From Alphaproteobacteria bacterium (GTDB taxonomy: Bacteria > Pseudomonadota > Alphaproteobacteria > CALMVH01), in contig CBDAQZ010000001.1 of assembly GCA_965199335.1 (NCBI GenBank), positions 71,102 through 135,101 of the forward strand: a stretch of 64,000 nt of DNA. The letters run 5' to 3'. The translations under genes were made by a program, and so were the position numbers. The notes below the pieces were generated by a model. The model saw nothing but the letters and a program-made list of their open reading frames with translations, was not told the origin of the DNA and searched no databases. Shown one piece after another: positions 2,966 to 41,626 of the stretch (position 1 is its first letter; the number at the start of each line of letters is the position of its first letter).

Positions 2966-3098
2966 GGCAGTGTTCCTTAAAGGAGTTATTTTCACCTTTA
3001 TAGGAGGGTACCTACCTCTCGGCAATATACAATCATGCGAATTCTACGAAAGAGCGCACTTTTATTTCAGACACAAGTATTAAGGGACGTCCTCTAGA

Positions 3099-7454: not shown

Positions 7455-7519
7455 TCAAGGCTCCTTATTATTGTTACTGCGGACGCGAGAGCGGGCGCCA
7501 CAATTCAGCCACTATAGAA

Positions 7520-7625
7520 ATTTGGTTAACAAAAATAGAATTAATCTTGGCCTTCTGGCCTAATATCGGCCACGAAAACATGCAGTTAACAAAAAGTTTA
7601 TTGTCGATAATATCGGAGCGGTATA
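7520..7625. promoter_or_regulatory. AT-rich divergent promoter region with an imperfect ~60-bp tandem duplication (GTTAACAAAAA...TAATATCGG occurs twice)
   Basis: Unit 1 is at 7524-7571 (GTTAACAAAAATAGAATT...CTAATATCGGCC). Unit 2 is at 7584-7621 (GTTAACAAAAAGTTTATT...ATAATATCGGAG). It lies between the autotransporter start (7454, minus) and ORF 7635 (plus). Confidence 0.4.
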
Positions 7626-7634
7626 ACATGCGGC

Positions 7635-8564: not shown

Positions 8565-8637
8565 CCGCTCATTCCTGTATTGTCGCCGCCTGCTGCCCGT
8601 GGCACACCCATGGGGCAGCATCACAGGGACATGGCGC

Positions 8638-10065
<1,428 letters not shown>

Positions 10066-12340: not shown

Positions 12341-13513
12341 CTAGTCCGCCAGAGCCTGCTCCAGGTCGGCGCGCAGATCGTCGGCATCCTCGATCCCGAC
12401 CGATATCCGCACCATTCCATCCGATATGCCCGCCGCTTCCCGTGCTTCCTTGGGCATGAAGGAGTGCGTCATGGTCGAAGGCTGCTCGATCAGGCTCTCG
12501 ACGCCGCCCAGGCTGATCGCCAGCGTGAAGATGCGACACTTCAACAGGAAACGGCGCACGGTTTCGCTATCGCCCTTCAGCTCCAGGCCGATCATGCCGC
12601 CAAAACCGCGCTGCATCTGTCGTGTCGCAAGCTCGTATTGCGGGTGGCTTTTCAGCCCGGGGTAAATGACGCGGGCGACCTTGGGATGGCTTTCCAGCCA
12701 TGTCGCCAGTGCCAGCGCGTTTTCGCTATGGCGCTGCATCCTCAGCCCCAGCGTCTTCAGGCCGCGATGCATCAGAAAGGAGTCGAAGGGACCGGACACC
12801 GCACCCAGCGCGTTCTGCAGAAACTTCATCCGTTCGTCCAGCGCCGGATCGTTCGTGACCACCAGCCCGCCGATGACATCGGAATGGCCGCCGATATACT
12901 TGGTGCCCGAATGCATCACGATATCCACCCCCAGTTCCAGCGGGCGGTGAATCCAGGGCGTGGCGAACGTATTGTCGACCACGGTCTGAAGCCCATGCGA
13001 CCGCGCGAATTTCACGATCTCCTGGATGTCGAACAGCTTCAGTAACGGGTTGGTCGGCGTCTCCACCCAGATCATGCGCGTCTTGGGGCGAAGCGCAGCC
13101 TTCAGTTTCGCGGGATCGTTCAGATCGACATAGCTGGTGCTCATTCCCGCCGATTTGTGCCGGACCATGTCGAAGATGCGGTAGGTGCCGCTGTAAATGT
13201 CGTCGGTCGCGATGATGTGCGACCCAGCCGGTAGAAGATCGACGATAGTCGCTGCCGCCGCCTGTCCCGATGCGAAGGCGAAACCGGCGCTTCCGCTCTC
13301 CAGCGAGGCGATCAGGCGTTCGAGCGCGAAGCGGGTGGGATTCTGGGCACGCCCGTAATCGAAACCGGTGTGCTGGCCCGGCGTCGTATGCGCGAAGGTC
13401 GAGGTCGCATAGATCGGCATCACCACGGCATTCGTCGTCGGGTCGAAGGATTGCCCGGCATAGATGCAGCGGCTGTTGAAGCCCTTGGTCAGGTCGTCGC
13501 GTTTCATATCCAC
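12341..13513 (-). CDS. PLP-dependent Cys/Met-metabolism enzyme (cystathionine gamma-synthase / gamma-lyase / methionine gamma-lyase family)
   Basis: 390 aa. The SGTKYIGGHSDV PLP-lysine motif is present. Similarity to MetB/MetC/MdeA runs the full length. Its stop abuts the arsR-family gene at 13515. Confidence 0.85.
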   Translation of the reverse strand: MDMKRDDLTKGFNSRCIYAGQSFDPTTNAVVMPIYATSTFAHTTPGQHTGFDYGRAQNPTRFALERLIASLESGSAGFAFASGQAAAATIVDLLPAGSHIIATDDIYSGTYRIFDMVRHKSAGMSTSYVDLNDPAKLKAALRPKTRMIWVETPTNPLLKLFDIQEIVKFARSHGLQTVVDNTFATPWIHRPLELGVDIVMHSGTKYIGGHSDVIGGLVVTNDPALDERMKFLQNALGAVSGPFDSFLMHRGLKTLGLRMQRHSENALALATWLESHPKVARVIYPGLKSHPQYELATRQMQRGFGGMIGLELKGDSETVRRFLLKCRIFTLAISLGGVESLIEQPSTMTHSFMPKEAREAAGISDGMVRISVGIEDADDLRADLEQALAD

Positions 13514-26096: not shown

Positions 26097-26957
26097 CTAG
26101 ATCAGGTCGAAGCGTTTTATCAGCGTATCGACGTTGCGGCAGACCTCGAATGTTTCGCCACCGCGCGCCAGGTAGTGGTACCTGACCTTCGGCAGGGCCG
26201 GGTCGTAAAGCGACAGGAGCTCGGGCTGGAAGGTGAATTGCAGATGGTCGGAGAACGCCCATTTGGTAACGGCGTTCAGATATAGCCGGCTCATTCTAAG
26301 CTGTTCCCGCTGCTCGGGAGTCAGCGCGGTTTGTCCGGGGGCGATCTTCAGGGCCGGAAACGTATGCCCGAAATTGATCGAGGCCGGATCGGTCACGCTG
26401 TAGACCATGTTGCGGCACCCCGCGCGGGCGAATGCCGTGTTGGCGGCAAAAACCAAATCGAACGACGTCTCGTATTTCCCGGCCTCAAGCTCATCTACCA
26501 AACCCTTGGTAACGTTGTATGTGCTCTTGAAATGCTCCCGGACTGCCGGGTTCGAGCCGAAATACAGCGTCAGGGAGACGTCACCGGGCAGGCCGTCGGC
26601 CAGTCCCACCGGCGAGGCATAGGCAAAGAATACGTCGTTGCGCCAGTCGACCATGCGGCTGCTGGACCAGTATTTCTGTTCGCGCAACGAGCGACAATTG
26701 CTGCGATCGCCGAACAGGATCGCCATGCCCTGCGGCGGCGGTGAATACCAGCCATCCGCCAGCACGTAGGGCTTCGCTGCCATGCGATGAAACCACTCGT
26801 CGTGAAACTTCTTTTCGCTGATGCCGCTTTTGCCGATCAGATCGTCCAGGGTTTCCGTAAGGGCTTCCATGGCCAGTACGCGCGTTACGTTGAAGCTTGG
26901 CATGTCCACACAGTGACATATGGTTGCACAGACGCAAGTCGCGTGGTTATTGAACAT
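26097..26957 (-). CDS. Hypothetical protein (no family recognised); start uncertain (26957, 26903 or later)
   Basis: 286-aa ORF with protein-like composition after residue about 19. It is convergent with purS and divergent from the alkA-like gene. Confidence 0.45.
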   Translation of the reverse strand: MFNNHATCVCATICHCVDMPSFNVTRVLAMEALTETLDDLIGKSGISEKKFHDEWFHRMAAKPYVLADGWYSPPPQGMAILFGDRSNCRSLREQKYWSSSRMVDWRNDVFFAYASPVGLADGLPGDVSLTLYFGSNPAVREHFKSTYNVTKGLVDELEAGKYETSFDLVFAANTAFARAGCRNMVYSVTDPASINFGHTFPALKIAPGQTALTPEQREQLRMSRLYLNAVTKWAFSDHLQFTFQPELLSLYDPALPKVRYHYLARGGETFEVCRNVDTLIKRFDLI

Positions 26958-27599
26958 ATGTTGCTGTCCGAAGTTCCTGAAATTGCTGAAGGTATTCTGA
27001 ATCTGGCCGCAACCGAGCCCGGTTTTGCAACGGCGCTTGCGGAAAACGGCCCGCTGCGATTCGAATTGAAGGCCGGTGGCTTTACAGGTTTGTTGCGGGT
27101 CATACTGGGGCAGCAGGTGTCGGTGCTGGCGGCAGATGCGATCTGGCGCAAGATCAGCGCCGCCATGCCGATAGTTTCACCCGCTGCGATGGTCGAAGTC
27201 GATGACGATGTGTTGCGAGGATGCGGCTTCAGCCGGCAGAAGATACGCTATACCAAAGGGCTGGCCGCCGATATCCTGTCCGGCGCCCTCGATCTCGATG
27301 GCCTGTCGCGGCTTGATGACGAAGCGGCGATCGCCGCCATCACGAAATGCATCGGGCTCGGTCGTTGGACGGCCGAGAATTATCTGCTGTTCTGCGAGGG
27401 CAGGTCCGATCTGTTTCCCGCCAAGGATTTGGCCATATTGATCGGCATGCAGATGTTGTCCGGTGCGCCGGTACGGCCAACGCATACCGAAGCCTGGGCC
27501 CAGGCCGAACGCTGGCGGCCGCATCGCAGCGCCGCCACACTGCTGATCTGGCATCATTACATCGGCATGGTGGCAAGGCGGAAGAAGGTCAGGGCGTAA
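26958..27599 (+). CDS. HhH-GPD superfamily DNA glycosylase (AlkA-like 3-methyladenine DNA glycosylase II)
   Basis: LLRVILGQQVSVLAADAIW and the HhH-GPD motif IGLGRWTAENYLLF are present. The ORF-track start at 26787 is an upstream extension overlapping the divergent gene. Confidence 0.75.
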   Translation: MLLSEVPEIAEGILNLAATEPGFATALAENGPLRFELKAGGFTGLLRVILGQQVSVLAADAIWRKISAAMPIVSPAAMVEVDDDVLRGCGFSRQKIRYTKGLAADILSGALDLDGLSRLDDEAAIAAITKCIGLGRWTAENYLLFCEGRSDLFPAKDLAILIGMQMLSGAPVRPTHTEAWAQAERWRPHRSAATLLIWHHYIGMVARRKKVRA

Positions 27600-27651
27600 G
27601 GAACCGACCGGCGCACCAACTGTTCTGTTATGACTGTCAAAAGGAAGCGCC

Positions 27652-27981
27652 ATGCCCCGCATCGTCGACGAAGCCATCGATTACCTGACCGAGCGCAATA
27701 CGCATATCCCGCCGGTGATTTCGATACTGGCACTGATCGGCCTTGGCCGCGTCGCCCGGCTGGCGTCTCTTGGCCTGGCTGCCTTGTGGGTCGCCGACCA
27801 GGTGCGGAACATCGACCGTGACCGCGCGCATACGAACCCCAAGAAACAGGAAGATCGCATGGTGGATACCGCCATGGAGGATTCCTTTCCAGCCAGCGAC
27901 CCGCCATCCTACAGCGGCACGGTCGCCACCGGCGCGCCTGAAGAAGTATCGAGCGTCGTGCAACTGCGCACGGTTCACTGA
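27652..27981 (+). CDS. Hypothetical small membrane protein (conserved DSFPASDPPS-type C-terminal motif)
   Basis: 109 aa, with one TM segment. The overlapping minus ORFs are junk. Support is weak. Confidence 0.35.
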   Translation: MPRIVDEAIDYLTERNTHIPPVISILALIGLGRVARLASLGLAALWVADQVRNIDRDRAHTNPKKQEDRMVDTAMEDSFPASDPPSYSGTVATGAPEEVSSVVQLRTVH

Positions 27982-28740
27982 CTAAGGCGCGAACTGCTCC
28001 TTCAGGATGCGTTCCTGAAGCGTGTGATGCGGGTCGAACAGGATGGTCAAATTGATCGCATGATCCTGCACGATCTCGACTGAAGCAACTTCGCGTACCT
28101 CGGTCACGCCGGCTACGGCACTGACCGGTCTTTTGTCGGGCTCATGGATTTCCACATTGATCGTGACCTGGTTCATCAGCAATGCTCCGCGCCAGCGCCG
28201 GGGACGAAACGCGCTGATCGGGGTAAGCGCCAGCAGGTTCGAGCCTAAGGGGATAACGGGGCCGCCTACGGACAGGTTATAGGCTGTACTGCCGGCAGGT
28301 GTTGCACACAGGACACCGTCGCAGATCAGTTCGGGAATACGCGCAACGCCATCGATGGTCACGCGCAACTTCGCCGCCTGACGCGTTTCGCGCAGAAGTG
28401 AAACCTCGTTCATCGCCAGTGCGGTTACGACTTCGCCCTGATAACGTGTCGCGATCATTTTCAACGGGTGGAGGGTCAAGGCCTGCGCCGTTTCCACGCG
28501 CTCCAGCAGGTTATCCTCGTCGTATTCGTTGAGCAGAAAACCAAGCGTTCCACGGTTCATGCCATAGACCGGAATGTTATCGCCCATGAACCTGTGCTGG
28601 ACTTCCAGCATCAGACCATCGCCTCCAAGTGCGACGATGCGATCGGCATCTTCGGGGGCGCAACCGCCGTAACGGGCTTCGAGCCGTTCCTTCGCGGCTT
28701 TCGCATGATCCGCATCGGAGGCGATGAACCCGATTTTCAC
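27982..28740 (-). CDS. nadK: NAD kinase
   Basis: VKIGFIASD...GGDGLML...NEVS...[15 protein letters not shown] are NadK motifs. The GTG start at 28740 overlaps the pyrE TAG stop (taGTG). The 391-aa ORF in the track is an upstream read-through extension. Confidence 0.85.
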
Positions 28741-29435
28741 TAGGCTTCGACCGATTCCCGGCCGCCATGCGCCGCCGACCACAATATGGGATCGTGCAGG
28801 AACAGTTCGACCTCGGCCAGGGTATTGGTGTCGAACCGTTTCTCCGCTTTGGCGACGGCCAGAACATCCCACCAGGTGCAGAGGTGGTGCAGCTTCAGCC
28901 CGCCCGCCTTCAATTGCGCCTCGGCGCCTTCGTAAATGCCGTAGAAGAATACCGAGAAGGCATGATCGACGACCGCGCCGGCGCTGCGCAAAACTTCGGC
29001 GAAGGTGATCTTGCTCTTGCCGTCGGTGGCCAGATCCTCGACCAGCAGAACGCGGCTGCCTTCCTCCACCACGCCTTCGATCTGCGCCATACGCCCGAAA
29101 CCCTTCGGTTTCTTGCGGATATACTGCATCGGCAGGCCCATGCGGTCGGCGATCCATGCCGCATAGGGAATACCGGCGGTCTCGCCGCCGGCGATCGAAT
29201 CGATCGAGCCGAACGGCACGTTGGCCAGGATGGTCGAAACGGCGAAGCTGGACACCATGGAGCGCACATCGGGATAGGCGATGATCTTGCGGCAGTCGAT
29301 ATAGACCGGGCTGGCCCAGCCGGAGGTGAAGATAAAGGGCTTGTCGACGTTGAACAGCACCGCCTCGATATCCAGAAGGGCCTTTGCGGTCAGCCGCGCC
29401 ATCAGTGCGGGATCGGTGAAGCCGGGAACGATCAT
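28740..29435 (-). CDS. pyrE: Orotate phosphoribosyltransferase
   Basis: [15 protein letters not shown]...[12 protein letters not shown] are PyrE motifs. A GGAGG ribosome-binding site lies 5 nt upstream of the ATG at 29435. The track ORF is extended upstream by read-through. Confidence 0.9.
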
Positions 29436-29650
29436 TCTGCCTCCATCATGCGCCAGTTCAGGGTCTCGCCGGCGCGGAATGGTTGGATCATATCGCCCGT
29501 CGCGCCAACGGCAATAGATTCCGGTATCGGCAGAGGTTCGCGACGCAGGGTAACGGTGCCATGGTTCAGGGGCAGGCCGTAATACCGGGCGCCGTTCTCG
29601 CTGGCATGCACATGCCAGTCGTCGGGGCGGCGGATGGTAAGTTCGGTCAT
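29432..29650 (-). pseudogene. pyrC: In-frame internal-deletion remnant of homodimeric (type II) dihydroorotase; keeps only the N-terminal ~15 and C-terminal ~55 residues
   Basis: The 72-aa ORF is [15 protein letters not shown]|[55 protein letters not shown]. The N-terminus aligns to E. coli PyrC ..[15 protein letters not shown]. The C-terminus aligns to ..[48 protein letters not shown]. All catalytic-core residues are missing. It makes ATGA overlaps with both the upstream WaaL-like stop and the pyrE start. Confidence 0.6.
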
Positions 29651-30798
29651 GGGTTTTCCGTACGTCGTGCGGCGAGCAGAAGCATCGAAGTGAGAAGGGC
29701 GAGGCAGGCCAGCCACCAGCCCTGCCAGATACCAAAGGCAAAGGCGGCGACGGCCAGCGCGCCGGCGGATACCGCCAGCGCGAACATGCGCGGGATACGA
29801 TCGAGCTGGCCAATTTTCTCGAACAGCCTGACCATGAAATACAGCGTCGCGCAGACCCCGACAAAGCCGAGCTCAAGCCATATCTGCAGGAAGAAATCGT
29901 GCGGATGCAGTGGCGGCGTGTTGCCGCCCAGCGGCAGGAAATCGGGCGGCAGGTCGGCGGTCGGGATCGCGCGCGACCCCTCTAGGCCCAGCCCTACAAG
30001 CGGCCAGTGTAGGATGCGGTCGGCGGTGAAATGCCAGATCTGGATGCGATGACGAAAGGAGAATTGCAGGCTTTCCTTCTGGTCCAGCCCCCATTTGGTC
30101 AGCAGCAGGCCGACCGGAATCGCCAGCGCAAAGCCCGCGGTGGTGATAGCCGACAGGCCGCGCTGTACGAGTTTCGGCGCCAGCCACGCCACCCCGAACG
30201 TCACAATCCCGAGTACCATGCCGACCATCGCCGAATGGCTTTGCAGGAAAAGGATGCCCACGGTGTAAAGGCCCAGCATCGCCAGTGCCGACCAGCGCAT
30301 GCCCTCGCGAAAACGCACCAGCGCGGCAGGCCATAGGAAAAGGGAGAAACATACGACCTCGCGGTCATAGGCGTTGACCGGGATCGTAGGCCAGTGCTTG
30401 TGCATATGCTTGATCGGGCCGCCCAGCGCGATATCGCCAAGGCATATCAGCAGGCCGAAAAGCAGGCTGAACAACAGGGCCCGCTGGGAGATCAGCACGT
30501 CGCGCACCGGCATGCCGCGAATGGCAACCGGGATGACCAGGGCCGAGGCGGCGATTGCAATCAACTCAGGCAATTTCTCCCATGCCATGATACCGGCCTT
30601 TGCCCACAGGCAGGACGCCGCCGCCCATGCCAGCAGTACGCCCAGGGCAATTGTCAGCGTACGATCCGGCACCGGCCAGCGCTGGTGGTCCAGACGGTAG
30701 GTGATCAGCGATCCCAGCCCCAGCACGAACAGCAGCGGTGCAAGGCCCAGCGGGTCCAGACCGCAGATCGGACCGATCAGGACGCACGCGCCCGTCAT
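29647..30798 (-). CDS. O-antigen ligase (WaaL)/Wzy_C-family integral membrane protein
   Basis: About 10 TM helices and the [14 protein letters not shown] motif (H-[NH]-x-[FY]-L-Q-x3-E-x-G of Wzy_C). Alternative starts are 30831 and 30858. Confidence 0.8.
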
Positions 30799-30811
30799 CA
30801 GATAACCGGTT

Positions 30812-31615
30812 TTACTTTGTATTCTGGGCATCTTTGGAGTCCGATTGCAGCAGCGCACGCGCCTTGATGCAGGTCAATAGCGGATAGAGGGCGGAGAACA
30901 GGGCGAGCGCCAGGCCGTAGACGCCTTCGCGGTAGCCCCGGCGGCTGAGATAGGATTTGTAGAAGCGTCCGAACACACGCCTTGTCGTCGCCCATTTACC
31001 GGGTATCTGGCCGGTCATTACCGCCTGTCGCGCGGCCAGGCTGGTGTAGCGGTTCAGGCGAGCATACATGTCGTCCAGGTCGTCGTCGACGAAATGGTCG
31101 ATGCCGTTGACCAGGCGGATGCGCGGGCCGGTCATCGTGACCTTGGGATGCACTAGGTCCTGGCCCCAGATCTTGTTGCCCTTGTAGAACAGGCAGCTTT
31201 TCGCGCCGACGCCGTTATAGGCGCCCCAGCCATGGCGAATCAGCCGGCCGCCGACATAGTTGTTGAAGGGAATGCCGAATACGCCCGGCTCGGCTGTCGG
31301 CAATACGGATTTGATTTCCTGCGCCAGTTCCGGCGTCACGCGCTCGTCGGCGTCCAGCTCGATGATCCAGGGGCCGGCGCAGGCGTCGATGCCGGCCATG
31401 CGGCGGCTGCCCTCGTTCGGCCATGCGCCCTCGACCAGCCTTGCCTTGTATTCGAGGGCGATGGCGCGCGTGCGGTCGGTGCAGCGGTCCAGCACCACGA
31501 CGATTTCGTCGGCGAAGGCGACGCTGTCGAGGCAGGCGGTCAGGCGAGCCTCCTCGTTGTGCGCCACGATCAGCGCCGTCAGTGTTGTGGATGTCATGTG
31601 TGCGTCTTCTGCCAT
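30812..31615 (-). CDS. Family 2 glycosyltransferase (LPS core biosynthesis type)
   Basis: GT-A fold with LIVAHNEEARL...ELDADE (DXD). Confidence 0.85.
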   Translation of the reverse strand: MAEDAHMTSTTLTALIVAHNEEARLTACLDSVAFADEIVVVLDRCTDRTRAIALEYKARLVEGAWPNEGSRRMAGIDACAGPWIIELDADERVTPELAQEIKSVLPTAEPGVFGIPFNNYVGGRLIRHGWGAYNGVGAKSCLFYKGNKIWGQDLVHPKVTMTGPRIRLVNGIDHFVDDDLDDMYARLNRYTSLAARQAVMTGQIPGKWATTRRVFGRFYKSYLSRRGYREGVYGLALALFSALYPLLTCIKARALLQSDSKDAQNTK

Positions 31616-32562
31616 AGACGTGTCGCCGCTTCCACGGCATCGTCGACGGTGATGCGTTTCATCAGGGCCAGCGCCGCCTCATCGTCGCCATCCGCGCACA
31701 AATCGCGCTCTCGCAGCGGATCGTCTGCCTTGGACATATAGGCGGCGTGTTCGCCCCAGGGGCGGTATTTCCAGGCAACGCCGGGGCCGAACAGGGCCAG
31801 CGTCGGAACGCCGGCTGCTGCGGCCAGGTGGGTGAGACCGGAATCATTGCCGATATAGAGGTCGGCGCGTTCGATGCAGGCGGCGGTCACCGCGATGTCG
31901 ATGGTGCCGGTTAGGTCGATGACCTGCTCGGCAGGCAACGCGGCAAGGATCGGCTTTACCGTTTCATGGTCGCGCTCGTCTCCCAGCAACAGGACCCGTG
32001 CACCCGGCATCAGGCTGCCTGCCGCGGTCAGCCGCAGCGCCAATTGTCCGTAAAGCTCGACCGGCCATTTCTTGCCGTAGGAGTTTGCACCCGGGGCCAT
32101 TGCCAGAATGTACCCGTGCGTATGCTGGTTCTTGGGCACGAGCTCCTCGGCGTAGTGCAGGGCCTGCTCGCCATGCCAGAGGCGCGGGGCAGGCGCGGTA
32201 TCGAGTCCCAGCAAGGCGCCCAGCTCCTCGACCTTGTGCGGGCGGTTTGTCGGTTTTTTCCAGATCACGCGCTTTTTCGCCCGGATCAGCCGCGACACCG
32301 CGCTTTGCCGCAGATCGACGACCATATCCCAGCTCGTACCCACGGTTTCGCGCCACAAACTCAGCCAATGGCCCGACCACGGGCGTTTTTTCAGCTCGAT
32401 CACGTGCCTGACCTGCGGCACATCCCAGAAAAGGGCCGCGGGCAGGGGGCCGCAGACGACCGTGAAGTCGGCCTTCGGGTGCCTTTCCTTGAGCGCACCG
32501 AGGATTCCGGTCGACAAAATCGCGTCGCCCAGGCGGTTTGAAGTGATGAACAGGATTTTCAC
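31594..32562 (-). CDS. ADP-heptose:LPS heptosyltransferase (GT9 family)
   Basis: MKILFITSNRLGDAILSTGIL...GNDSGLTHLAAAAGVPTLALFGP is the GT9 (WaaC/WaaF/RfaQ) signature. Confidence 0.85.
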   Translation of the reverse strand: MKILFITSNRLGDAILSTGILGALKERHPKADFTVVCGPLPAALFWDVPQVRHVIELKKRPWSGHWLSLWRETVGTSWDMVVDLRQSAVSRLIRAKKRVIWKKPTNRPHKVEELGALLGLDTAPAPRLWHGEQALHYAEELVPKNQHTHGYILAMAPGANSYGKKWPVELYGQLALRLTAAGSLMPGARVLLLGDERDHETVKPILAALPAEQVIDLTGTIDIAVTAACIERADLYIGNDSGLTHLAAAAGVPTLALFGPGVAWKYRPWGEHAAYMSKADDPLRERDLCADGDDEAALALMKRITVDDAVEAATRLWQKTHT

Positions 32563-32618
32563 GCCCCTGTTCTAGCAGACACGGGGCGCTTGCAAAGCTT
32601 CATCGCCTGCACGACCTT

Positions 32619-33440
32619 ATGGCCATGTTGTTACCAGACCGGGCCATCGTCGCCGTTTCGGGCGAGGATCGCATAGCATTCCTGCAGGGACTCATCACCA
32701 ACGACGTCGACAGCCTGCGCGACGGCGAGGTCGCCTATTCCTGCCTGCTGACCGCCCAGGGCCGGTTTCTGCACGATTTCTTCGTCATTGCCGCCGGCGA
32801 CCGCTTGCTGTTCGACTGCGAAGCCGGCCGTCGCGACGACCTGATTCGCCGCTTGAAACAGTTCCGTCTGCGGGCGAAGGTGGATGTGACGGACGAAATG
32901 GCAGCCTATTCCGTCCATTGTCATTCCCGCGAAGGCGGGAATCCAGGATTGGATACGGGATATGCCTACGCCGATCCACGGCATGTCGACCTTGGCTACC
33001 GATCTATCGTTCCGGCTGGTTTAATCCTTGATTCACGCTTTCGCGGGAATGACGGGGAGTGGGAAGGCTACGAACGTATCCGCATTACTCTCGGCGTTCC
33101 CGACGGCAGCCGCGACATGGTGCCGGAGCAGGCCTTGCTGCTGGAAAACAACATCGACCGCCTGAACGGCATTTCCTTCACCAAGGGGTGCTATGTCGGG
33201 CAGGAAGTCACGGCGCGCATGCACCACAGGGGCGGGGTGAAGAAACGCCTGACGCCGGTGCGTATGGAAGCCGCCGCGCCACCGGTGGGAATGCCGGTTA
33301 CGATAGATGGCACCGAAATCGGCGAGATGCGATCGAGTTGCGGCGATCTGGGACTGGCATTGTTGCGGGCCCGTGCGGAAGAGGGCCAGATACATTGTGG
33401 TGATGCAAAGCTGTATGTGCTGAACCACACATCCACCTGA
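32619..33440 (+). CDS. ygfZ: tRNA-modifying folate-binding protein YgfZ (CAF17 family) carrying a 45-codon in-frame repeat insertion
   Basis: The KGCYVGQE signature (ISFTKGCYVGQEVTARMHHRG) is present. The low-complexity segment ...CHSREGGNPGLD...RFRGNDGE... is encoded by the palindromic element at 32919-33053. Confidence 0.85.
   Translation: MAMLLPDRAIVAVSGEDRIAFLQGLITNDVDSLRDGEVAYSCLLTAQGRFLHDFFVIAAGDRLLFDCEAGRRDDLIRRLKQFRLRAKVDVTDEMAAYSVHCHSREGGNPGLDTGYAYADPRHVDLGYRSIVPAGLILDSRFRGNDGEWEGYERIRITLGVPDGSRDMVPEQALLLENNIDRLNGISFTKGCYVGQEVTARMHHRGGVKKRLTPVRMEAAAPPVGMPVTIDGTEIGEMRSSCGDLGLALLRARAEEGQIHCGDAKLYVLNHTST
32919..33053. repeat. MITE/REP-like element (135 bp) with terminal inverted copies of a GTCATTCC-hairpin-GGAATCC unit, inserted in-frame in ygfZ
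   Basis: The left unit is tGTCATTCCCGCGAAGGCGGGAATCCAGG (32919-32948). The right unit is the reverse complement GTCATTCCCGCGAAAGCGTGAATC (33030-33053). 135 bp equals 45 codons. The antisense frame reads ...IPAFAGMT..., the known junk-peptide signature of this repeat class. Confidence 0.55.
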
Positions 33441-33442
33441 TT

Positions 33443-33527
33443 GTCATTCCGGTGCGTAGCACCGGAATCCATACCGCTGATAAAGGGAGGCACGACCGCA
33501 TGGATTCCGTGCTGCGCACGGAATGAC
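33443..33527. repeat. Second copy of the same palindromic element family (two hairpin units in inverted orientation) in the ygfZ/glyS convergent spacer
   Basis: GTCATTCCGGTGCgtaGCACCGGAATCCAT ... ATGGATTCCGTGCtgcGCACGGAATGAC. It starts 2 nt after the ygfZ stop and ends 7 nt before the glyS stop. Confidence 0.6.
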
Positions 33528-33536
33528 GATTTTTTT
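33505..33536 (+). terminator. Candidate intrinsic terminator for ygfZ formed by the repeat hairpin plus a T7 run
   Basis: TTCCGTGC-tgc-GCACGGAA is followed by TGACGATTTTTTT. The spacer to the T-run is slightly long. Confidence 0.4.
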
Positions 33537-35619
33537 ATCCTTCGATCTTCGAGAAATCCGCGATGGCGTCGAACGTTCCGGTGATCGCTGCCAACAGCTT
33601 CAGGCGATTCTGACGCAGCTTGGGATCGGGATCGTTGACCAAGACCTTGTCGAAGAAAGCGTCGAGGGGCAGTCGCAGCTTTGCCAGGACGTCCATGCTC
33701 TCTTCGTATTTGCCTGCCTGAGTTAGTTCACGGGCTTTGGAGAGGCTAGAATCCAAAATAAGGCCTAATTCTTTTTCCGCAGATTCAACGAGTAGCCGAG
33801 TTTCAAAATCGAGCCCATAATCTTGGTCTTTCTTATTCTCCTTTTCCAATATGCTGCTGGCTCGTCGGTAAGCGGTAAGCAAGGGGCCGCCATTCGCACT
33901 GAGAAATTTCTGTAAAGCCTGAGCCCTCTGAACGATAAGTAGCAAATTGTCCCCCGAATTTGCCCCTAGTAGAGCCTCAAGCAGATCATGACCAATACCT
34001 TCATCCCTTAACTGAACTTTCAAACGGTCGGCAATGAAAGCAAAAACTTTTTCCGCTACCGTATCTGGAACTAAGTTGGGAATAAGTTGGGAATAATAAG
34101 ATAGCGCAGCGCTGCAAACTGAAACCAGAGAAAGCTCTAGGCTATTCTCGCGAATCAGCCGGATAATTCCAAGTGCGGCACGACGCAGGGCGTAGGGGTC
34201 GCGGCTGCCGGTGGGCAGCTCTTCGATGGCGAAGAAACCGACCAGCGTATCCAGCTTGTCGGCAAGGGCGACGGCAACGCTGACCGGCTTGGTCGGGCAG
34301 GCATCGCCCGGGCCGGCGGGGCGGTAATGATCGGCGATCGCGTCGGCCACGTCGTCGCCGAGGCCTTCCTTGCGGGCGTAATATCCGCCCATGATGCCTT
34401 GCAACTCGGGGAATTCGCCAACCATGCCCGAGACAAGGTCGGCCTTGGCCAGCAGGCCTCCCTTGCGTGCCAGGTCAGCATCGCCATTTGTGTGGCTGCT
34501 GATGCGTTCTGCAAGATTGGCGATACGATCCGCTTTCTGGCGCACCGTGCCCAACTTCGCATGGAACGTTACCTTCTCCAGCTTCGGCAAACGCTGTTCC
34601 AGCGTCGTCTTCAAATCCTGGTCCCAGAAGAACCGGGCATCGGCAAGGCGGGCGCGCAATACGCGTTCGTTGCCGGCGACGATGGTTGCGCCGCCGTCGT
34701 TGCCGGGTACATTGGCGACGATGGCGAATTTCGCCGCTGACGTGCCGTCCCTGTTCGCCAGCGTGAAATATTTCTGGTTCTCGCGCATCGTCACCTGCCG
34801 CACTTCCTTTGGCAGGTCCATGAATTCCTGGTCGATCGAACCGAGCAGCACCGTCGGCCATTCGACCAGGCCGGTGACTTCCTCCAGCAGGCCGTTATCG
34901 GGCACCAGCTCCAGCCCCGCCTTTGTCGCCGCCGCATGCAGCTGGCGTGCGATTTCCGCCTTGCGCTCGTCGCGGTCCAGGATGACGTATCGCGTCCTCA
35001 GCTTGGCGAAATAATCTTCGAAATCATGGACGTGAAACGGCTCCGGCGCCAGGAAGCGGTGGCCGTGGCTGACATTGTTGCCGGTATAGGTAAGCGTCGG
35101 CGGAAATTCCAGCTTCGCCGTGATCGGCTGGCCGCCGAAGACCATCATGATGTTGTGCAGCGGGCGCACCCAGCTCAGCGGGTGCAGGCTCCAGCGCATC
35201 GATTTGGGCCAGGGGAAGTGCGTGATGATCTGCGCGACGATCTCGGGCAGCAGGTCCGCAGTGGGCTGGCCGAATTTCTTGGTGACGGCGTACCAGAACA
35301 CACCCTTGCCGCTATCGCGCTGCTCGGCCTGTTCCAGGCTGTCGATGCCCGCGCCTTTCAGGAAGCCCTGGATCGCGGCATCGGGCGATCCGACCTTCGG
35401 GCCCTTGCGTTCGTCCAGGCTGTCGGGCTGTTGCACTGCCAGGTCGCGCACGACCAGTGCCAGCCGGCGCGGGGTGACGTGGGTTTCGCAGGCGCTGAAA
35501 TCCAGCTTCGCCTCCTGCAGCCGTTCGCAGAACAGGCGCCTCAGGTCTTCCGCCGCCTGTTTTTGCATGCGGGCGGGGATTTCTTCGCCGAACAGTTCCA
35601 GCAGGAATTCGGAGTGCAT
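33535..35619 (-). CDS. glyS: Glycyl-tRNA synthetase beta subunit
   Basis: 694-aa full-length GlyS. The start makes an ATGA overlap with the glyQ stop. The 3' 450 bp (about 33700-34150) has markedly lower GC. Confidence 0.95.
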   Translation of the reverse strand: MHSEFLLELFGEEIPARMQKQAAEDLRRLFCERLQEAKLDFSACETHVTPRRLALVVRDLAVQQPDSLDERKGPKVGSPDAAIQGFLKGAGIDSLEQAEQRDSGKGVFWYAVTKKFGQPTADLLPEIVAQIITHFPWPKSMRWSLHPLSWVRPLHNIMMVFGGQPITAKLEFPPTLTYTGNNVSHGHRFLAPEPFHVHDFEDYFAKLRTRYVILDRDERKAEIARQLHAAATKAGLELVPDNGLLEEVTGLVEWPTVLLGSIDQEFMDLPKEVRQVTMRENQKYFTLANRDGTSAAKFAIVANVPGNDGGATIVAGNERVLRARLADARFFWDQDLKTTLEQRLPKLEKVTFHAKLGTVRQKADRIANLAERISSHTNGDADLARKGGLLAKADLVSGMVGEFPELQGIMGGYYARKEGLGDDVADAIADHYRPAGPGDACPTKPVSVAVALADKLDTLVGFFAIEELPTGSRDPYALRRAALGIIRLIRENSLELSLVSVCSAALSYYSQLIPNLVPDTVAEKVFAFIADRLKVQLRDEGIGHDLLEALLGANSGDNLLLIVQRAQALQKFLSANGGPLLTAYRRASSILEKENKKDQDYGLDFETRLLVESAEKELGLILDSSLSKARELTQAGKYEESMDVLAKLRLPLDAFFDKVLVNDPDPKLRQNRLKLLAAITGTFDAIADFSKIEG

Positions 35620-37405: not shown

Positions 37406-37822
37406 CTAGAAGTCGGGATTTTGGTGGCCTTGCGGACCCGCTGAGTTTCGTTTGCCCGAAACCGCGACCAAATGGCTTATGTGAGTGGAGAGTTCTGAAT
37501 ACACGTCCAGATTTGGAGCTGCTGGCGAAATCACGGTATGTTTTGATTTCAATTGGCTAACGATCTGTTGCGAGGGAGTGGTACCCAGGTTCAACGCGTC
37601 GTACATTGTAAAATCGACCATCGGTCCGCTGGGGTCGAAGAAAAGCTGCCGTGATCCGACATGCTCGAGCATCGGGCTGCCGTTTTCCAGAGCCTTGCTC
37701 CAGATAGTGGCTGCCTCCTCATCGCTTACGGGTTCAGTCGAGCCTGAACAATCTATGGCGTTGTTCAGCATCGCCGATATCAAAGCCCAGGTCGGTACCC
37801 CGGAAACATCTGTTGCAGACAT
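37406..37822 (-). CDS. Hypothetical protein (lower-GC gene)
   Basis: 138 aa. An AAGAGG ribosome-binding site lies 6 nt upstream. It sits in operon position ahead of the methyltransferase. The plus-strand alternative 37485-37847 starts with GTG and has no ribosome-binding site. Confidence 0.45.
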   Translation of the reverse strand: MSATDVSGVPTWALISAMLNNAIDCSGSTEPVSDEEAATIWSKALENGSPMLEHVGSRQLFFDPSGPMVDFTMYDALNLGTTPSQQIVSQLKSKHTVISPAAPNLDVYSELSTHISHLVAVSGKRNSAGPQGHQNPDF

Positions 37823-37930
37823 GGTTCAGCCTCTTTTTAATGACTGATTAATACATGGGCGTTCGTGCATAGTCCAGAAAATTGTAAGCGGCGCCAACTC
37901 ACTTGAATACATAGTTTTGCCCTGTATGTT

Positions 37931-38959
37931 TTGCTTATGACCGCTGCCGACAATGTCGCCCGTACACACGCCAAGCCTGCCAGCGTCAATGCGCTGGACG
38001 AGCTTACCGCGCTGGTAGCCGACGACCTTGCCCGCGTCAACGCATTGATCCTGCAGCACATGCAATCGCCCGTGGCGCTGATTCCCCAGCTTGCCGGCTA
38101 TATTCTTTCCGCCGGCGGAAAGCGCCTGCGCCCGGTGCTTACCCTCGCTTCGGCGCGTTTGTGCGGCTACGAGGGCGATCGTCATCCCGGCCTGGCTGCC
38201 GCCGTGGAACTGATCCACACCGCGACCCTGCTGCATGACGATGTCGTGGACGAAAGCGATCGCCGCCGCGGCCGCGCCTCGGCCAATGCCGTGTTCGGCA
38301 ACGAGGCGAGCGTGCTGGTCGGCGACTTCCTGTTCAGCCGCGCTTTCGAGCTGATGACCAGCGATGGCTCCATCGAGGTGTTGCGCATCCTGTCCAACGC
38401 CTCTGCCGTGATTGCGGAGGGCGAGGTGCTGCAGCTGGCCACCGCCAACGACCTCGCCACGACCCAGGAAGCTTATTTCAAGGTAATCGAATCGAAGACC
38501 GCCGCCCTGTTCGCGGCCGCCTGCGAAGTCGGGGCCATCGCCGCCGGCACGCCCGATTACGCGTCCGGCCTCAGCGTTTACGGGCGCAAGCTTGGCCTTG
38601 CCTTCCAGATCGTCGATGACGTGCTGGACTACGTTGCCAGCGAGGCCCGGCTGGGCAAGGCGATCGGTGACGATTTCCGCGACGGCAAGGTGACCTTGCC
38701 CGTGATCCTGGCCTATCAGCGCGGCAGCGAGGGCGAACGCGACTTCTGGCGCCGCTCGATCGAGGATCAGGAGCTTGACGACGACGCGCTGGATTACGCC
38801 ATCGCCCTGCTGCGCCAGCACCGGGCGCTGGACGAAAGTTTCGACATCGCGCGCGGCTTCGTGGTCGAGGCAAAGGCGGCGCTTCTGCCACTGCCGACCG
38901 GGCCTTTCCGCTCGGCCATGACCCGCGTCGCCGATTTCTGCGTCGATCGCGATTTTTAA
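37931..38959 (+). CDS. ispB: All-trans polyprenyl (octaprenyl/decaprenyl) diphosphate synthase
   Basis: FARM LLHDDVVDESDRRRG and SARM QIVDDVLD motifs are present. The antisense 388-aa ORF is junk. Confidence 0.9.
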   Translation: MLMTAADNVARTHAKPASVNALDELTALVADDLARVNALILQHMQSPVALIPQLAGYILSAGGKRLRPVLTLASARLCGYEGDRHPGLAAAVELIHTATLLHDDVVDESDRRRGRASANAVFGNEASVLVGDFLFSRAFELMTSDGSIEVLRILSNASAVIAEGEVLQLATANDLATTQEAYFKVIESKTAALFAAACEVGAIAAGTPDYASGLSVYGRKLGLAFQIVDDVLDYVASEARLGKAIGDDFRDGKVTLPVILAYQRGSEGERDFWRRSIEDQELDDDALDYAIALLRQHRALDESFDIARGFVVEAKAALLPLPTGPFRSAMTRVADFCVDRDF

Positions 38960-39022
38960 CGCGGACGCGCCGTCTCCCGGCTTGAAGTTCATACGCCGCT
39001 ATGCTTATAGTCCGCGCCACTT

Positions 39023-39099
39023 CGGGATGTAGCTTAGCCTGGTAAAGCGCCTGCTTCGGGAGCAGGAGAGCGGAGGTTCGAATCCTCTCATCCCGACCA
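39023..39099 (+). tRNA. tRNA-Pro (anticodon CGG)
   Basis: CGGGATG acceptor stem pairing with CATCCCG (the C1:G72 pair is characteristic of tRNA-Pro). Anticodon loop TTCGGGA. T-arm GGTTCGAATCC. The CCA is encoded. Confidence 0.85.
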
Positions 39100-39202
39100 A
39101 TTGTGTTAACTAAGTTAAAAGCTGGTAAATTTCGATGATTTGCGATATAGTTACCTTTTAGAGCGCATAATAAAACTGCCGTAACCCTGTTCAGGTTGAA
39201 AT

Positions 39203-41626
39203 TTGGCCGATATGGAAACTGATTCACGCGAAGCTTACGAGGAGGACTACGACGTCCAGTTCCTCGATGCGGAATCTGACGTTCCGGTGGTTGCCAAGCC
39301 CGATCGCGCCCTTTCGCAGATCGCTCCCAGCTATATGGTTTTCGATACCCGTCGCCAATTGACCTTCTGGTCGATCCGGCCGCAGGACGATTGCATCGAC
39401 TTCGCCCGTCTGTTCCACACCGGCCTTGCGCTGGAGGACCTGATCGAAAAGGCGGTTCGCCTCGGCATCCTGGATACCGAGGGCGTCGAGATGCGCCGCT
39501 ATGTCGGCGAACGCCTGGCCCGGTTCGCCAGCGGCGAGGGATCGTTCCAGTGCCGTCTGGCCGGCGACCGCTGGTTCCGCATCGCGGACAAGCGCAGCCC
39601 GGACGGTACGACCATCACATCGATCGTCAATGTCACCAGCTTCGAACGCCGCGAACGGGCCATGGCGATGCTGCTGGGCGAACACCTGTCCGGCCTGCCC
39701 CTGTTCGAACGTGCGGCGCGTGCGCTCACGATCGGTCTCGGCTTCCAGACCGCCTCCATCGCCCGGCTGGTAGGCGACGACGAGGCTGAAACGATTGCCT
39801 GCCTGCATGCCGGCGTGTCTGTCGACGCGCGGCGCTTTTCCATTCGCGGCACGCCGTGCGAGCCGGTTTACCGCGCCGGCTATTTCGCCTTCAGCGGCGA
39901 CCTGCTGCGTCGCTTCCCGCTGATCAACTTCGACGGATATTTCACCGATATCGGCCATGGCAGCTATGTCGGGCAGGTGGTGTATGCCCGTGACGGCAAG
40001 CCGCTGGGGCATGTTCTGGCGCTGGACGAGTCAGAGCGCCAGTTCGACGAGGGCGAGCGCCGGCTGGTACGCATGGTCGCCGAACACGTCGCGCATGAGC
40101 TAGAGCATACCGATTCCGCGCTTGCGGTCGCGGTCGGTGAAAACCGCCTGCGGGATTTCACCGATACGGCGCAGGAAGCGTTCTTCGAAACCGACGCCAG
40201 CATGATCTGCGTTTTCGCTTCTGCCCAGGCAGAAAACGTTACCGGCCTCAGCGCCACCGCATGGCTTGGCCATCCGATGACCGAGCTGGGCCAGCCGAAC
40301 GATGCGGGCTGGCAGACCTGCCTGGAAGACATCAACGCTCACCGCGCCTTCCGGGGCGCCAGCTTCGCGTTCGGCAAGGAAGGCAAGGGCGGCCCACGCC
40401 TTTCCCTGAGCGGCAAGCCCCTTTTCGATCCGTTCGGCGGCTTTGCCGGGTATCGTCTGGCCGCACTGCCGGCCGCGACGGCGGCGCTGGCCGTCACCGG
40501 CCCGAAGCCGGAAACCGAAGAAACAATGAGCCAGGTCCTGGGCAGTAGCCTGGAAGGCGTCGCGCTGTACAACGCCGACTACAAGCTGATCTTCTGCAAC
40601 GACAAGTTTCTGAACCTGCTGTTCGGCAACAAGCAGGACAAGGTCAAGCCCGGCATGTCGCTGGCCCAGCTGAGCTATCTGTGGCTGCGCCAGGGCAGCG
40701 ATGCCGAGAAGCGCCGCCTGGTGAAGTTCCATCTCGAATCCGACGCGCTGGGCGGGGATTATCTCGACATCACCACGCCCGACGAGCGGACGCTGCGCGC
40801 CATCCGCCGCCGGACGGAGGAGGGTGGCCTTGCGACCGTCTACCTCGACATCACCGACCTGAAGCGCCGCGAGCACGAGCTGTCGGAAGCGCGCGATGCG
40901 GCGGTCGAGGCGAACAGCACCAAGAGCATGTTCCTCGCCAATGTCAGCCACGAGCTGCGTACGCCGCTGAACGCGATCATTGGCTTTGCCGAAATCATGC
41001 GCGAACAGCTGCTGGGGCCGATCAACAACCCGCGCTATTTCGAATACGTCCAGGACATCCGCGCCAGCGGCGAACACCTGCTGGACATGATCAACGACAT
41101 CCTCGACCTGTCGAAGGCCGAGGCCGGGCAGCTGGAGCTGGCCTACGAGATGATCGACATCGGCGACGTGATGAACGCCGTCGTGCGCCTCATGGGCGAA
41201 CAGGCGGAAAGCGGCAAGCTGCACTTCGTCGCGCTGTCGCCGGTCGGCCTTCCGCAGATCAAGGGCGACAAGCGCCGGGTCAAGCAGGTGCTGATCAACC
41301 TGATCTCGAACGCGATCAAGTTCACGCCCGCCGGCGGCACGATCGAGCTGAGCGCTCATGCCGACGACCACAGCGTCAAGATCACCGTCAACGACACCGG
41401 GATCGGCATCGCGGCGGATGAAATCTCCCGTGTCATGGTCCCGTTCGGCCAGGTCGACAGCGAAATCTCCCGTCGTCACAAAGGTACCGGCCTTGGCCTG
41501 CCATTGGCCAAGCGCCTTGTGGAACTGCATGGTGGAGAGCTGCATATCAGCAGCGAACCAAGCCGAGGCACGCGCGTAACCGTATCCTTCCCGTTCAACG
41601 CCAGCAGCAAGGAACGGGCAGCTTAG
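39203..41626 (+). CDS. Cytoplasmic multi-PAS/GAF sensor histidine kinase (HisKA + HATPase_c), orphan
   Basis: 807 aa. H-box VSHELRTPLNAI, N-box LISNAIKFT, G-boxes DTGIGI / GTGLGL. No adjacent response regulator. Confidence 0.9.
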   Translation: MADMETDSREAYEEDYDVQFLDAESDVPVVAKPDRALSQIAPSYMVFDTRRQLTFWSIRPQDDCIDFARLFHTGLALEDLIEKAVRLGILDTEGVEMRRYVGERLARFASGEGSFQCRLAGDRWFRIADKRSPDGTTITSIVNVTSFERRERAMAMLLGEHLSGLPLFERAARALTIGLGFQTASIARLVGDDEAETIACLHAGVSVDARRFSIRGTPCEPVYRAGYFAFSGDLLRRFPLINFDGYFTDIGHGSYVGQVVYARDGKPLGHVLALDESERQFDEGERRLVRMVAEHVAHELEHTDSALAVAVGENRLRDFTDTAQEAFFETDASMICVFASAQAENVTGLSATAWLGHPMTELGQPNDAGWQTCLEDINAHRAFRGASFAFGKEGKGGPRLSLSGKPLFDPFGGFAGYRLAALPAATAALAVTGPKPETEETMSQVLGSSLEGVALYNADYKLIFCNDKFLNLLFGNKQDKVKPGMSLAQLSYLWLRQGSDAEKRRLVKFHLESDALGGDYLDITTPDERTLRAIRRRTEEGGLATVYLDITDLKRREHELSEARDAAVEANSTKSMFLANVSHELRTPLNAIIGFAEIMREQLLGPINNPRYFEYVQDIRASGEHLLDMINDILDLSKAEAGQLELAYEMIDIGDVMNAVVRLMGEQAESGKLHFVALSPVGLPQIKGDKRRVKQVLINLISNAIKFTPAGGTIELSAHADDHSVKITVNDTGIGIAADEISRVMVPFGQVDSEISRRHKGTGLGLPLAKRLVELHGGELHISSEPSRGTRVTVSFPFNASSKERAA

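Follow-up and report, generated by a model that had tools for sequence, protein, structure and literature searches.

The locus raises one question: were three surface-polysaccharide genes recently joined to pyrimidine and NAD genes, or is this an old operon that has lately lost part of one gene? Six co-directional minus-strand ORFs occupy positions 27982-32562 of the window (the whole 64,000-nucleotide stretch of DNA analysed here), in the order GT9, GT2, Wzy_C/O-antigen-ligase-like, pyrC stub, pyrE and nadK (Table 1). A first-pass annotation had named these ORFs, their families and their tight chaining, all of which are borne out by coordinates, profile matches and junction sequence. At a probability of roughly 0.8, we favour an old, vertically inherited chain, very probably one operon, that is shared within a discrete group of uncultured Alphaproteobacteria, carries an eroding pyr slot and has recently undergone an in-frame deletion in pyrC.

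Table 1. Features of the gene chain and its flanks (window positions).
Feature	Position	Strand	Details
nadK, NAD kinase	27982-28740	-	NF003406; 252 aa, GTG start
pyrE, orotate phosphoribosyltransferase	28740-29435	-	NF001729; 231 aa, intact
pyrC pseudogene stub	29432-29650	-	72 codons; PyrC residues 1-15 joined in frame to the last 57
Sigma-70-like site TTGCCG-16-TATGAT	29487-29514	-	in retained pyrC 3' end, 52 nt upstream of pyrE ATG
Wzy_C-domain membrane protein, O-antigen-ligase-like	29647-30831	-	PF04932, 59.2 bits; 394 aa
GT2/ligase junction			20-nt overlap (ATG 30831, public call) or 13-nt gap (ATG 30798)
GT2-family glycosyltransferase	30812-31597 (alternative start: 30812-31615)	-	PF00535, 58 bits; 261 aa
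GT9/GT2 junction			ATGA (-4) with GT2 start ATG 31597
GT9-family glycosyltransferase (heptosyltransferase family)	31594-32562	-	PF01075, 76 bits; 322 aa, GTG start
Spacer between divergent ygfZ (32619-33440, +) and GT9	32563-32618	-	56 nt

Along the chain, the successive junctions are overlaps of 4, 20 (or a 13-nt gap), 4, 4 and 1 nt. The 22-nt overlap first reported between GT9 and GT2 holds for the longest-ORF start of GT2 and not for the downstream ATG, which is the start in the public gene call and agrees with the N-termini of homologues; the 261-aa form is present in a public protein collection. The 13 nt described as an overlap between GT2 and the ligase-like gene is in fact the gap. The ATGA at both ends of the stub and the TAGTG (-1) between pyrE and nadK were confirmed in the sequence. 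Overlaps are found in ~15% of co-directional gene pairs in most prokaryote groups (PMC6728339); five successive junctions of this kind exceed the expectation for independent gene pairs, and such a pattern is normal within operons. The genes are co-directional, their stop/start overlaps or short gaps leave no room for a promoter or terminator between genes, and the same junctions were tight again when nine related loci were compared. A promoter and terminator scan gave no signal above chance inside the chain. Thus, the chain is very probably one operon, with a single transcript and coupling suggested by geometry and conservation, and co-translation of its genes suggested by the overlaps. The -4 (ATGA) and -1 overlaps at most window junctions, conserved in relatives, resemble those of termination-reinitiation pairs (Huber et al. 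2019, PMC6728339). Subunits of heteromeric complexes are reported as frequent products of coupled gene pairs (PMC10666635); in contrast, the window genes encode unrelated functions, and one of the links is only a pseudogene stub.

To place the chain in its clade, we compared it with nine metagenomic relatives (L081-L084, L168-L170, L172 and L174), whose ligase-like proteins are 45-66% identical to that of the window. A divergent ygfZ followed by GT9-GT2-ligase, with nadK closing the chain, was found in 9/9 relatives, with overlaps of -4, -1, -8 or -11. The first-pass annotation had called this architecture unusual and suggested a recent insertion of the surface-polysaccharide module, while allowing that the same arrangement across the family would mean an old, stable operon; comparison of the pyrC-pyrE locus found that arrangement in all nine relatives, and we regard it as ordinary operon biology. 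By this comparison, the variable part is the pyr pair between the ligase gene and nadK, not the LPS genes. This slot holds pyrC-pyrE in 5/9 relatives and pyrC only in 3/9 (L168, L170, L172); in L169, all that remains is a pyrC tail and an in-frame pyrE stub of 23 codons. Adding the pyrC stub and pyrE of the window gives four slot states over ten genomes: pyrC-pyrE, pyrC only, stub plus pyrE, and two stubs.

A tree built from concatenated GT9, GT2, ligase and NadK placed pyrC-pyrE-nadK loci on every major branch. Every pyrC-only or eroded locus pairs with a full locus as its sister; bootstrap values are 98-100 for three pairs and only 30 for L083+L170. The L169 erosion is independent of that in the window: its in-frame pyrE stub retains the native stop codon, 4 nt short of nadK, and its pyrC fragment has no start codon. 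GT9, GT2, the O-antigen-ligase-like gene and a terminal nadK form the fixed frame of the chain, which starts at a short spacer shared with divergent ygfZ. In the favoured history, the slot ancestrally held pyrC-pyrE and has eroded repeatedly within the clade.

Had the sugar genes recently entered a pyrC-pyrE-nadK operon, or landed ahead of it, and damaged pyrC in doing so, this would account for the damage lying exactly where the ligase and pyr genes meet. Such an insertion would also fit the pyrC-pyrE pairs of more distant lineages, which have no LPS genes, and the occurrence of the GT9-GT2-ligase triad beside different neighbours, for example folK-folP in L089. However, in the clade relatives the LPS genes are already joined to an intact pyrC by overlapping stop/start codons (L169 has the pyrC tail only), and in the window the pyrC start and its ATGA with the ligase stop are intact, with the deletion internal. 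The codon-usage check proposed at the outset gave no foreign signal either: the three LPS genes (GC3 0.77-0.83) fall among the window's housekeeping genes in both GC3 and codon usage, and their codon-usage scores lie within the range of 19 other window genes, a native composition. We therefore consider a recent insertion extremely improbable.

The other half of the earlier suggestion, a deletion marked by a pyrC remnant, held up: the lesion is internal, in frame and found only in this genome. The intact PyrC proteins of relatives are 347-350 aa. Against TIGR00856, the 341-position model of type-II PyrC, the stub matched positions 289-340 only (37.9 bits, cut-off 292.95), and a Pfam search of the stub gave no Amidohydro_1 match. 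Alignment to intact 348/349-aa orthologues showed that PyrC residues 16-291 are gone and that only the HxH (H13, H15) is retained; by the residue roles of E. coli PyrC, the missing segment includes five dihydroorotase metal/catalytic residues. With neither a full-length TIGR00856 match nor the metal/catalytic core of a type-II dihydroorotase, the 72-codon product is predicted to be catalytically dead. The junction at 29606|29605, with microhomology of 1 nt or less, marks the in-frame removal of ~276 codons (~828 bp), and the pyrC start codon and the ATGA overlaps at both ends are intact. The C-terminal part of the stub is 79% identical to L168 and 70% to L081 (L168 versus L081, 75%), and 1/17 clade-invariant positions is altered, as in intact genes. 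Because the ATGA overlaps were kept and no extra sequence decay has accrued, the deletion appears recent and non-polar. Termination and reinitiation could still carry ribosomes from the ligase gene across the stub into pyrE and on to nadK, and so no polar effect of the lesion on either of these two genes is expected.

The deletion is known from a single assembly, apparently of a metagenome-derived genome, so we also weighed whether an artefact of assembly or consensus calling, or else a minority haplotype, could explain it in an organism whose pyrC is really intact. One contig represents this genome in the collection, every protein that we checked is a singleton cluster, and a search of the metagenome collection for the deletion junction found no second occurrence. 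The join itself, however, is clean and in frame, with no ambiguous bases and no repeats that would promote mis-assembly, and the independent, more advanced erosion in L169 indicates that gene loss at this slot does occur in the clade. Additionally, the best 120 homologues of L081 PyrC, drawn from a database that does contain other proteins of this genome, include no intact type-II PyrC at the ~80-85% identity that would be expected. An artefact is thus unlikely. We infer that this genome is without a canonical type-II dihydroorotase, the activity being supplied elsewhere or replaced by pyrimidine salvage, which bears on the prediction of pyrimidine auxotrophy in uncultured bacteria.

Could the 72-aa product instead have become functional in its own right, either as a small protein or as a regulatory peptide? 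Its ORF is intact, is a gene call in the public annotation and has not undergone accelerated decay, but a recent deletion explains the missing decay equally well. The exact product is a singleton cluster in a collection of 15 billion proteins, it has no homologues of similar length, the same stub is absent from all sister genomes so far, and five metal/catalytic residues of dihydroorotase are missing. Such a function is very improbable.

A related proposal is that selection keeps the in-frame stub as a translational relay: if pyrE and the essential nadK depend on upstream translation, only deletions that leave a frame open from the ligase stop as far as the pyrE start, or the nadK start in L169, would survive. 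Both purely internal slot deletions (window pyrC and L169 pyrE) preserve the reading frame together with the native start and stop codons. A single open frame in L169 begins inside the 3' end of the ligase gene and extends to the pyrE stop, and nadK, which has no obvious Shine-Dalgarno sequence (SD) in the window and no evident one in most loci, has gained a GGAGG. The rph-1 frameshift of E. coli K-12, which lies in the gene preceding pyrE, has a polar effect on pyrE expression (PMC4404585). By chance, a single in-frame outcome is expected 1 time in 3 and two with a probability of ~0.11, and the L169 bridging frame (58 codons, at this GC) would be open by chance at ~0.2, a rough estimate. The L169 pyrC fragment has also lost its start codon, and window pyrE has its own SD-like GGAGG 4 nt upstream of its ATG, so pyrE may not need coupling. 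Selection for a relay is thus possible but rather unlikely. A wider version seems more doubtful still, in which the ligase-nadK slot would be a site of recurrent gene loss, its erosion filtered by ribosome flow to essential nadK and pyrE. Surviving deletions would then be those that stay in frame and keep the native overlaps, and excisions of whole genes would occur where stop and start codons repeatedly overlap, re-coupling pyrC directly to nadK in L168, L170 and L172. If that were true, the 72-codon stub would be a functional "relay ORF" and not mere debris, and the lineage would depend on a non-orthologous dihydroorotase or be drifting towards pyrimidine auxotrophy.

Comparison with the E. 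coli rph-pyrE operon helps to place the favoured reading. In both, pyrE lies distally in a polycistron whose first gene has an unrelated function, and damage to the upstream ORF can alter pyrE expression through translation-dependent polarity. Jensen is said to have proposed in 1993 a mechanism based on translation coupling for the polarity of rph-1 on pyrE. Unlike rph-1, the window lesion is in frame and keeps the ORF and its ATGA, and no polarity is expected. The upstream neighbour here is pyrC or the LPS ligase gene, not rph, and because there is no intergenic space, there is no intercistronic attenuator. Other Alphaproteobacteria also carry type-II pyrC directly upstream of pyrE on the same strand (Skermanella aerolata L013; Hoeflea L016 and L018; others), but in these loci pyrC is intact, and GT9/GT2/ligase genes and nadK are absent within 8 kb. 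A further 80 more distant alphaproteobacterial pyrE loci were compared, and these have neither LPS genes nor nadK beside pyrE. Overall, the window locus is ordinary: it is a translationally packed operon of mixed function, conserved across a sparsely sampled clade of Alphaproteobacteria, with one member recently pseudogenised. Its value is modest: it offers a natural example of gene loss in tightly overlapping operons, and the four-state slot series could be used to ask whether translational coupling constrains the deletions that are tolerated.

PyrE and NadK matched their profiles over their full lengths: PyrE scored 359.4 against a cut-off of 245 bits for NF001729 (residues 3-229 on profile positions 3-229 of 231), and NadK 364.4 against 211 bits for NF003406 (residues 2-251 on positions 7-256 of 257). 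The sugar genes are less specific. The GT9 protein exceeds the PF01075 cut-off of 22 bits and passes this general GT9 Pfam model only; it scored 69-77 bits against the WaaC/WaaF/WaaQ equivalogs (TIGR02193/02195/02201; cut-offs 135-185), with a match to the C-terminal domain only. Its best PDB match is 1psw, heptosyltransferase II (E 1e-13), and it is 65-76% identical to its L081/L082 counterparts. By these profiles it is a GT9 family member, and they assign it no sugar specificity. The ligase-like protein exceeds the Wzy_C gathering score of 31.7 bits; however, this domain is common to Wzy polymerases and PglL-type transferases, so the domain alone is no proof of ligase function. Its homologues form a discrete orthologue clade at 45-66% identity and then fall to <=35%, and a PDB sequence search with this protein gave no match. 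SFRxR and HPH[DN]-x9-G-x2-G are invariant in the clade alignment (window H311-D312…G322…G325); the WaaL hallmarks with which these segments may be compared are conserved periplasmic-loop Arg residues and an H[NSQ]-x9-G-x2-[GTY] motif. Alternatively, the window protein might function as a polymerase or as an O-oligosaccharyltransferase. Because GT9 falls far below the heptosyltransferase cut-offs and the ligase-like protein has these alternatives, a role in the LPS core is proposed at family level. Enterobacterial waa (rfa) operons (gmhD-waaF-waaC-waaL) likewise place GT9 heptosyltransferase-family and Wzy_C ligase-family genes in one co-directional cluster. In contrast to these operons, the window GT9 reaches none of the NCBIfam heptosyltransferase equivalog cut-offs, and the cluster consists of three sugar genes only, running gaplessly into pyrimidine and NAD genes.

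Lastly, we looked for promoter-like signals. The spacer upstream of GT9 contains TTGCAA (32595-32590) … CTAGAA (32575-32570), and in L168, L170 and L169 a TTGCAAGCGC…CTGCTAraA motif recurs at 20-38 nt before the GT9 start, while L083 and L172 carry variants of it. A generic sigma-70 scan left this conserved motif unflagged; the spacer is the probable promoter/operator region of the chain. The only promoter-like match in 27400-33000, a count at chance level, is the TTGCCG-16-TATGAT site. As TTGCSG-N16-TATGAT it is retained in 7/9 loci, and the L169 deletion ends exactly at its 5' edge; it also overlaps conserved codons (I/L/V-A…G-D-M-I). We treat it as a possible internal promoter and a weak lead. 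At the far end of the chain, nadK meets a convergent 109-aa ORF (27652-27981, +), the two stop codons lying directly side by side.

The six-gene minus-strand chain described in the first-pass annotation was present in the window as six consecutive ORFs, with small corrections to its junctions (see table). The junctions between the ligase gene (the Wzy_C/O-antigen-ligase-family gene) and the pyrC stub, and between the stub and pyrE, both read ATGA in the sequence, and the pyrE/nadK junction reads TAGTG. GT9 and GT2 do overlap (ATGA), but the 22 nt initially given for this overlap applies only to the longest-ORF alternative; we favor ATG 31597 as the GT2 start, which is backed by the public gene call and by the N-termini of homologues. 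The 13-nt overlap described between GT2 and the ligase gene is actually a 13-nt gap (ATG 30798) or a 20-nt overlap (ATG 30831). Heptosyltransferase equivalog models gave GT9 only 70–77 bits, far under cut-off, and a PDB sequence search with the ligase returned no match. Because GT9 fails these equivalog tests and the putative ligase is assigned from its Wzy_C domain, its context and a putative WaaL motif, we infer an LPS core module at the family level. As in LPS core operons, a GT9 gene and a ligase gene occur together, to which the window adds housekeeping genes; the chain would work like any translationally packed operon.

Coordinates of features in the window and in the related or distant loci, with profile matches where available
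Sequence	Feature	Coordinates	Strand	Match
Window	GT9 glycosyltransferase	31594-32562	-	PF01075, 76 bits
Window	GT2 glycosyltransferase	30812-31597	-	PF00535, 58 bits
Window	Wzy_C/O-antigen-ligase-family membrane protein	29647-30831	-	PF04932, 59 bits
Window	pyrC stub, 72 codons	29432-29650	-	TIGR00856, 37.9 vs 293 bits
Window	pyrE	28740-29435	-	NF001729, 359 bits
Window	nadK	27982-28740	-	NF003406, 364 bits
Window	Six-gene chain	27982-32562	-	
Window	ygfZ-GT9 spacer (motif within 32570-32595)	32563-32618	-	
Window	TTGCCG-16-TATGAT	29514-29487		
Window	109-aa ORF	27652-27981	+	
Window	286-aa ORF	26097-26957	-	
Window	tRNA	39023-39096		Rfam
Window	glyS 3' part, low GC	33500-34250		
L168	pyrC/nadK region	4612-6410		
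L170	pyrC/nadK region	8170-9974		
L172	pyrC/nadK region	8166-9963		
L085	Standalone pyrE	1279-1971		
L169	Ligase-nadK gap	4211-4377		
L089	GT9-GT2-ligase triad with folK, folP	3853-8122		
L081	GT9, ending early	4051-4965		
L084	glyS, split	1180-3232		
L083	HepT/MNT-type toxin-antitoxin pair	12743-13408		
L172	SIR2_2 protein with HTH gene	3004-4252		

Few close relatives of the window PyrE exist in a 5.8-billion-protein collection. From the contigs behind these and behind ligase orthologues, we obtained nine related metagenomic loci. Five of them (L081, L082, L083, L084 and L174) carry a divergent ygfZ followed by GT9-GT2-ligase-pyrC-pyrE-nadK, with a pyrC of 347–350 aa. In L168, L170 and L172 the same frame contains pyrC without pyrE, and nadK starts directly after the pyrC stop or overlaps it. 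Gene pairs of the relatives meet with similarly tight spacing (-4, -1, -8, -11 and the like), and the flanks are also kept: glyQS lies upstream, while purS-purC and the gene for the HhH-GPD glycosylase lie downstream. Within this set the ligase is 45–66% identical to that of the window; beyond the set, identity falls sharply to ≤35% (Skermanella, the nearest named homologue at 34%, and others), indicating that the loci form a discrete, fairly deep clade, as judged from sequence identity. The nearest named PyrC matches, from Sphingomonadales at ∼69%, were not informative. Among at least 80 alphaproteobacterial pyrE loci listed from outside the clade (56–65% identity), none had LPS genes or nadK beside pyrE, and pyrC sometimes adjoins pyrE. 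Additionally, a ligase-profile scan of metagenome contigs found distant homologues only (≤41% identity), none with pyrC, pyrE or nadK; a few of these keep ygfZ and GT9…ligase.

The first-pass annotation had suggested a recent insertion or deletion event and called the architecture unusual. Since the arrangement is conserved family-wide, being already carried by the nine related loci, the LPS module is not a recent insertion, and we reject that explanation as having a negligible chance of being correct. The GC and codon-usage check agreed: the three LPS genes have a GC3 of 0.77–0.83 (19 other window genes, 0.68–0.85) and codon-usage log-likelihoods of -0.89 to -1.04 (other genes, -0.75 to -1.11), placing them inside the range of the 19 genes. 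Horizontal acquisition of the LPS genes was rejected on this composition together with conservation in relatives. Thus, the operon architecture is old and conserved, and not unusual in kind.

A distant lineage (L089, ligase 34% identical) has the GT9-GT2-ligase triad running directly into folK and folP, with 4- and 8-nt overlaps in the triad, and is another case of chaining to housekeeping metabolism. Within the clade, GT9 of L081 ends early (304 aa, TAG, then a 57-nt gap to GT2) and glyS of L084 is split into two ORFs of 340 and 326 aa; pseudogenisation or sequencing errors are possible in both. The flank of L083 contains a toxin-antitoxin pair and L172 a SIR2_2 protein with an HTH gene beside ygfZ, small accessory insertions which show local flux around an otherwise syntenic region.

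The other event suggested earlier, a deletion, was borne out: the pyrC stub results from a genuine in-frame deletion that is recent and specific to this genome. Aligning it with intact orthologues, as protein and as DNA, demonstrated that PyrC residues 1–15 (…DDWHVH) are fused in frame to the last 57 residues, with ∼276 codons, or ∼828 bases, absent and the join between bases 29606 and 29605. The stub aligns solely with positions 289–340 of the 341-position TIGR00856 model. Because the whole stretch separating the HxH motif from the C-terminal tail has been lost, the stub product cannot be a dihydroorotase. The same alignments revealed microhomology of ≤1 nt and no repeat or IS trace at the junction. 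Among ∼15 billion proteins the exact 72-aa sequence occurs as a singleton, and the metagenome collection yielded 0 matches to a degenerate query for the junction. An assembly artefact or minority haplotype is unlikely, as the junction is clean and the pyr slot between the ligase gene and nadK is eroded in parallel in L169. Over its C-terminal part, the stub shares 79% identity with L168 and 70% with L081 (L168 vs L081, 75%), and only 1 of 17 clade-invariant positions is altered, conservatively, as in intact genes. This part is therefore not unusually diverged, and the deletion is recent when set against the divergence among these genomes. That the 72-aa peptide has acquired a new function is highly improbable.

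We also searched for a replacement enzyme. An intact type-II PyrC at the ∼80–85% identity expected of a relocated copy was absent among the best 120 homologues of L081 PyrC, in a database that does contain the other proteins of the window genome. A Pfam scan found no amidohydrolase or second dihydroorotase in 20 large ORFs of the 64-kb window.

In a neighbour-joining tree of concatenated GT9, GT2, ligase and NadK, L168 grouped with L081 (bootstrap 100), this pair with the window (100), L169 with L082 (98), L172 with L084 (98) and, weakly, L170 with L083 (30). Every major branch includes loci with the full pyrC-pyrE-nadK set, and the sister of each reduced locus is a full one, which favors an ancestral pyrC-pyrE-nadK with several independent losses. 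A standalone clade-type pyrE in L085, from the same sample as L172, is compatible with relocation of pyrE. L169 is a second, independent erosion of the slot. Its 167-nt 'gap' between ligase and nadK consists of the last ∼84 nt of pyrC, ATGA and a pyrE stub of 23 in-frame codons, MIVPGFIDPTHMARL joined to NGRNSVEA and a stop (MIVPGFIDPTHMARLNGRNSVEA, stop), which terminates at the native stop of pyrE, 4 nt ahead of nadK. A frame is open from within the ligase 3' end through to this stop. A GGAGG lies 9 nt upstream of L169 nadK; sister locus L082 is without it. Selection for an in-frame 'relay ORF' may have kept the window stub; this is plausible but less likely than not: two in-frame internal deletions would arise by chance with a probability of ∼0.11, and the window pyrE carries a GGAGG itself. 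The loss of genes from coupled operons could be studied in this clade as a natural series.

Expression of the chain would depend on a promoter in or around the 56-nt divergent ygfZ-GT9 spacer, which may drive one polycistronic mRNA. The spacer contains a partly palindromic motif, TTGCAAGCGC…CTGCTAraA (GCTTTGCAAGC), conserved in L168, L170 and L169 with variants in L083 and L172. In L082, L084 and L174 the gene starts may be mis-called, because the called spacer is just 5–10 nt. A generic sigma-70 scan did not pick out the motif; sigma-70 and terminator counts were at or under shuffled expectation, with nothing above chance inside the chain. An Rfam scan found no riboswitch or attenuator near the chain, the sole match being a tRNA. 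A sigma-70-like TTGCCG-16-TATGAT within the retained pyrC tail is a weak lead as an internal promoter: it is retained in 7/9 loci and the L169 deletion ends exactly at its 5' edge, but the site falls on conserved codons, and the number of scan hits was at chance. The -4/-1 overlaps would permit termination-reinitiation coupling, a common mechanism; overlaps are present in ∼15% of co-directional pairs in most groups of prokaryotes (PMC6728339). The rph-1 frameshift of E. coli K-12 is polar on downstream pyrE (PMC4404585). In contrast, no polar effect on pyrE or nadK is expected from the pyrC deletion, because it is in frame and spares both overlaps.

The nadK stop abuts the stop of a convergent 109-aa ORF (TAG/TCA), leaving no room for a terminator. 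This ORF, which carries a C-terminal MEDSFPASDPPS motif, matched neither Pfam nor NCBIfam; L081–L083 have unannotated 108–112-aa ORFs in a comparable position downstream of nadK, the likeness being one of position and size. A 286-aa ORF flanked by purS and the gene for the HhH-GPD glycosylase likewise matched nothing in Pfam or NCBIfam. In L081 the corresponding place is occupied by an unannotated 276-aa gene, and other relatives have different or no genes there. Lastly, the C-terminal part of glyS has a GC of 0.48–0.50 vs ∼0.60–0.65 elsewhere in the gene and in its neighbours, and smaller dips occur near 37500–38000 and, beside the tRNA, 39000–39500.
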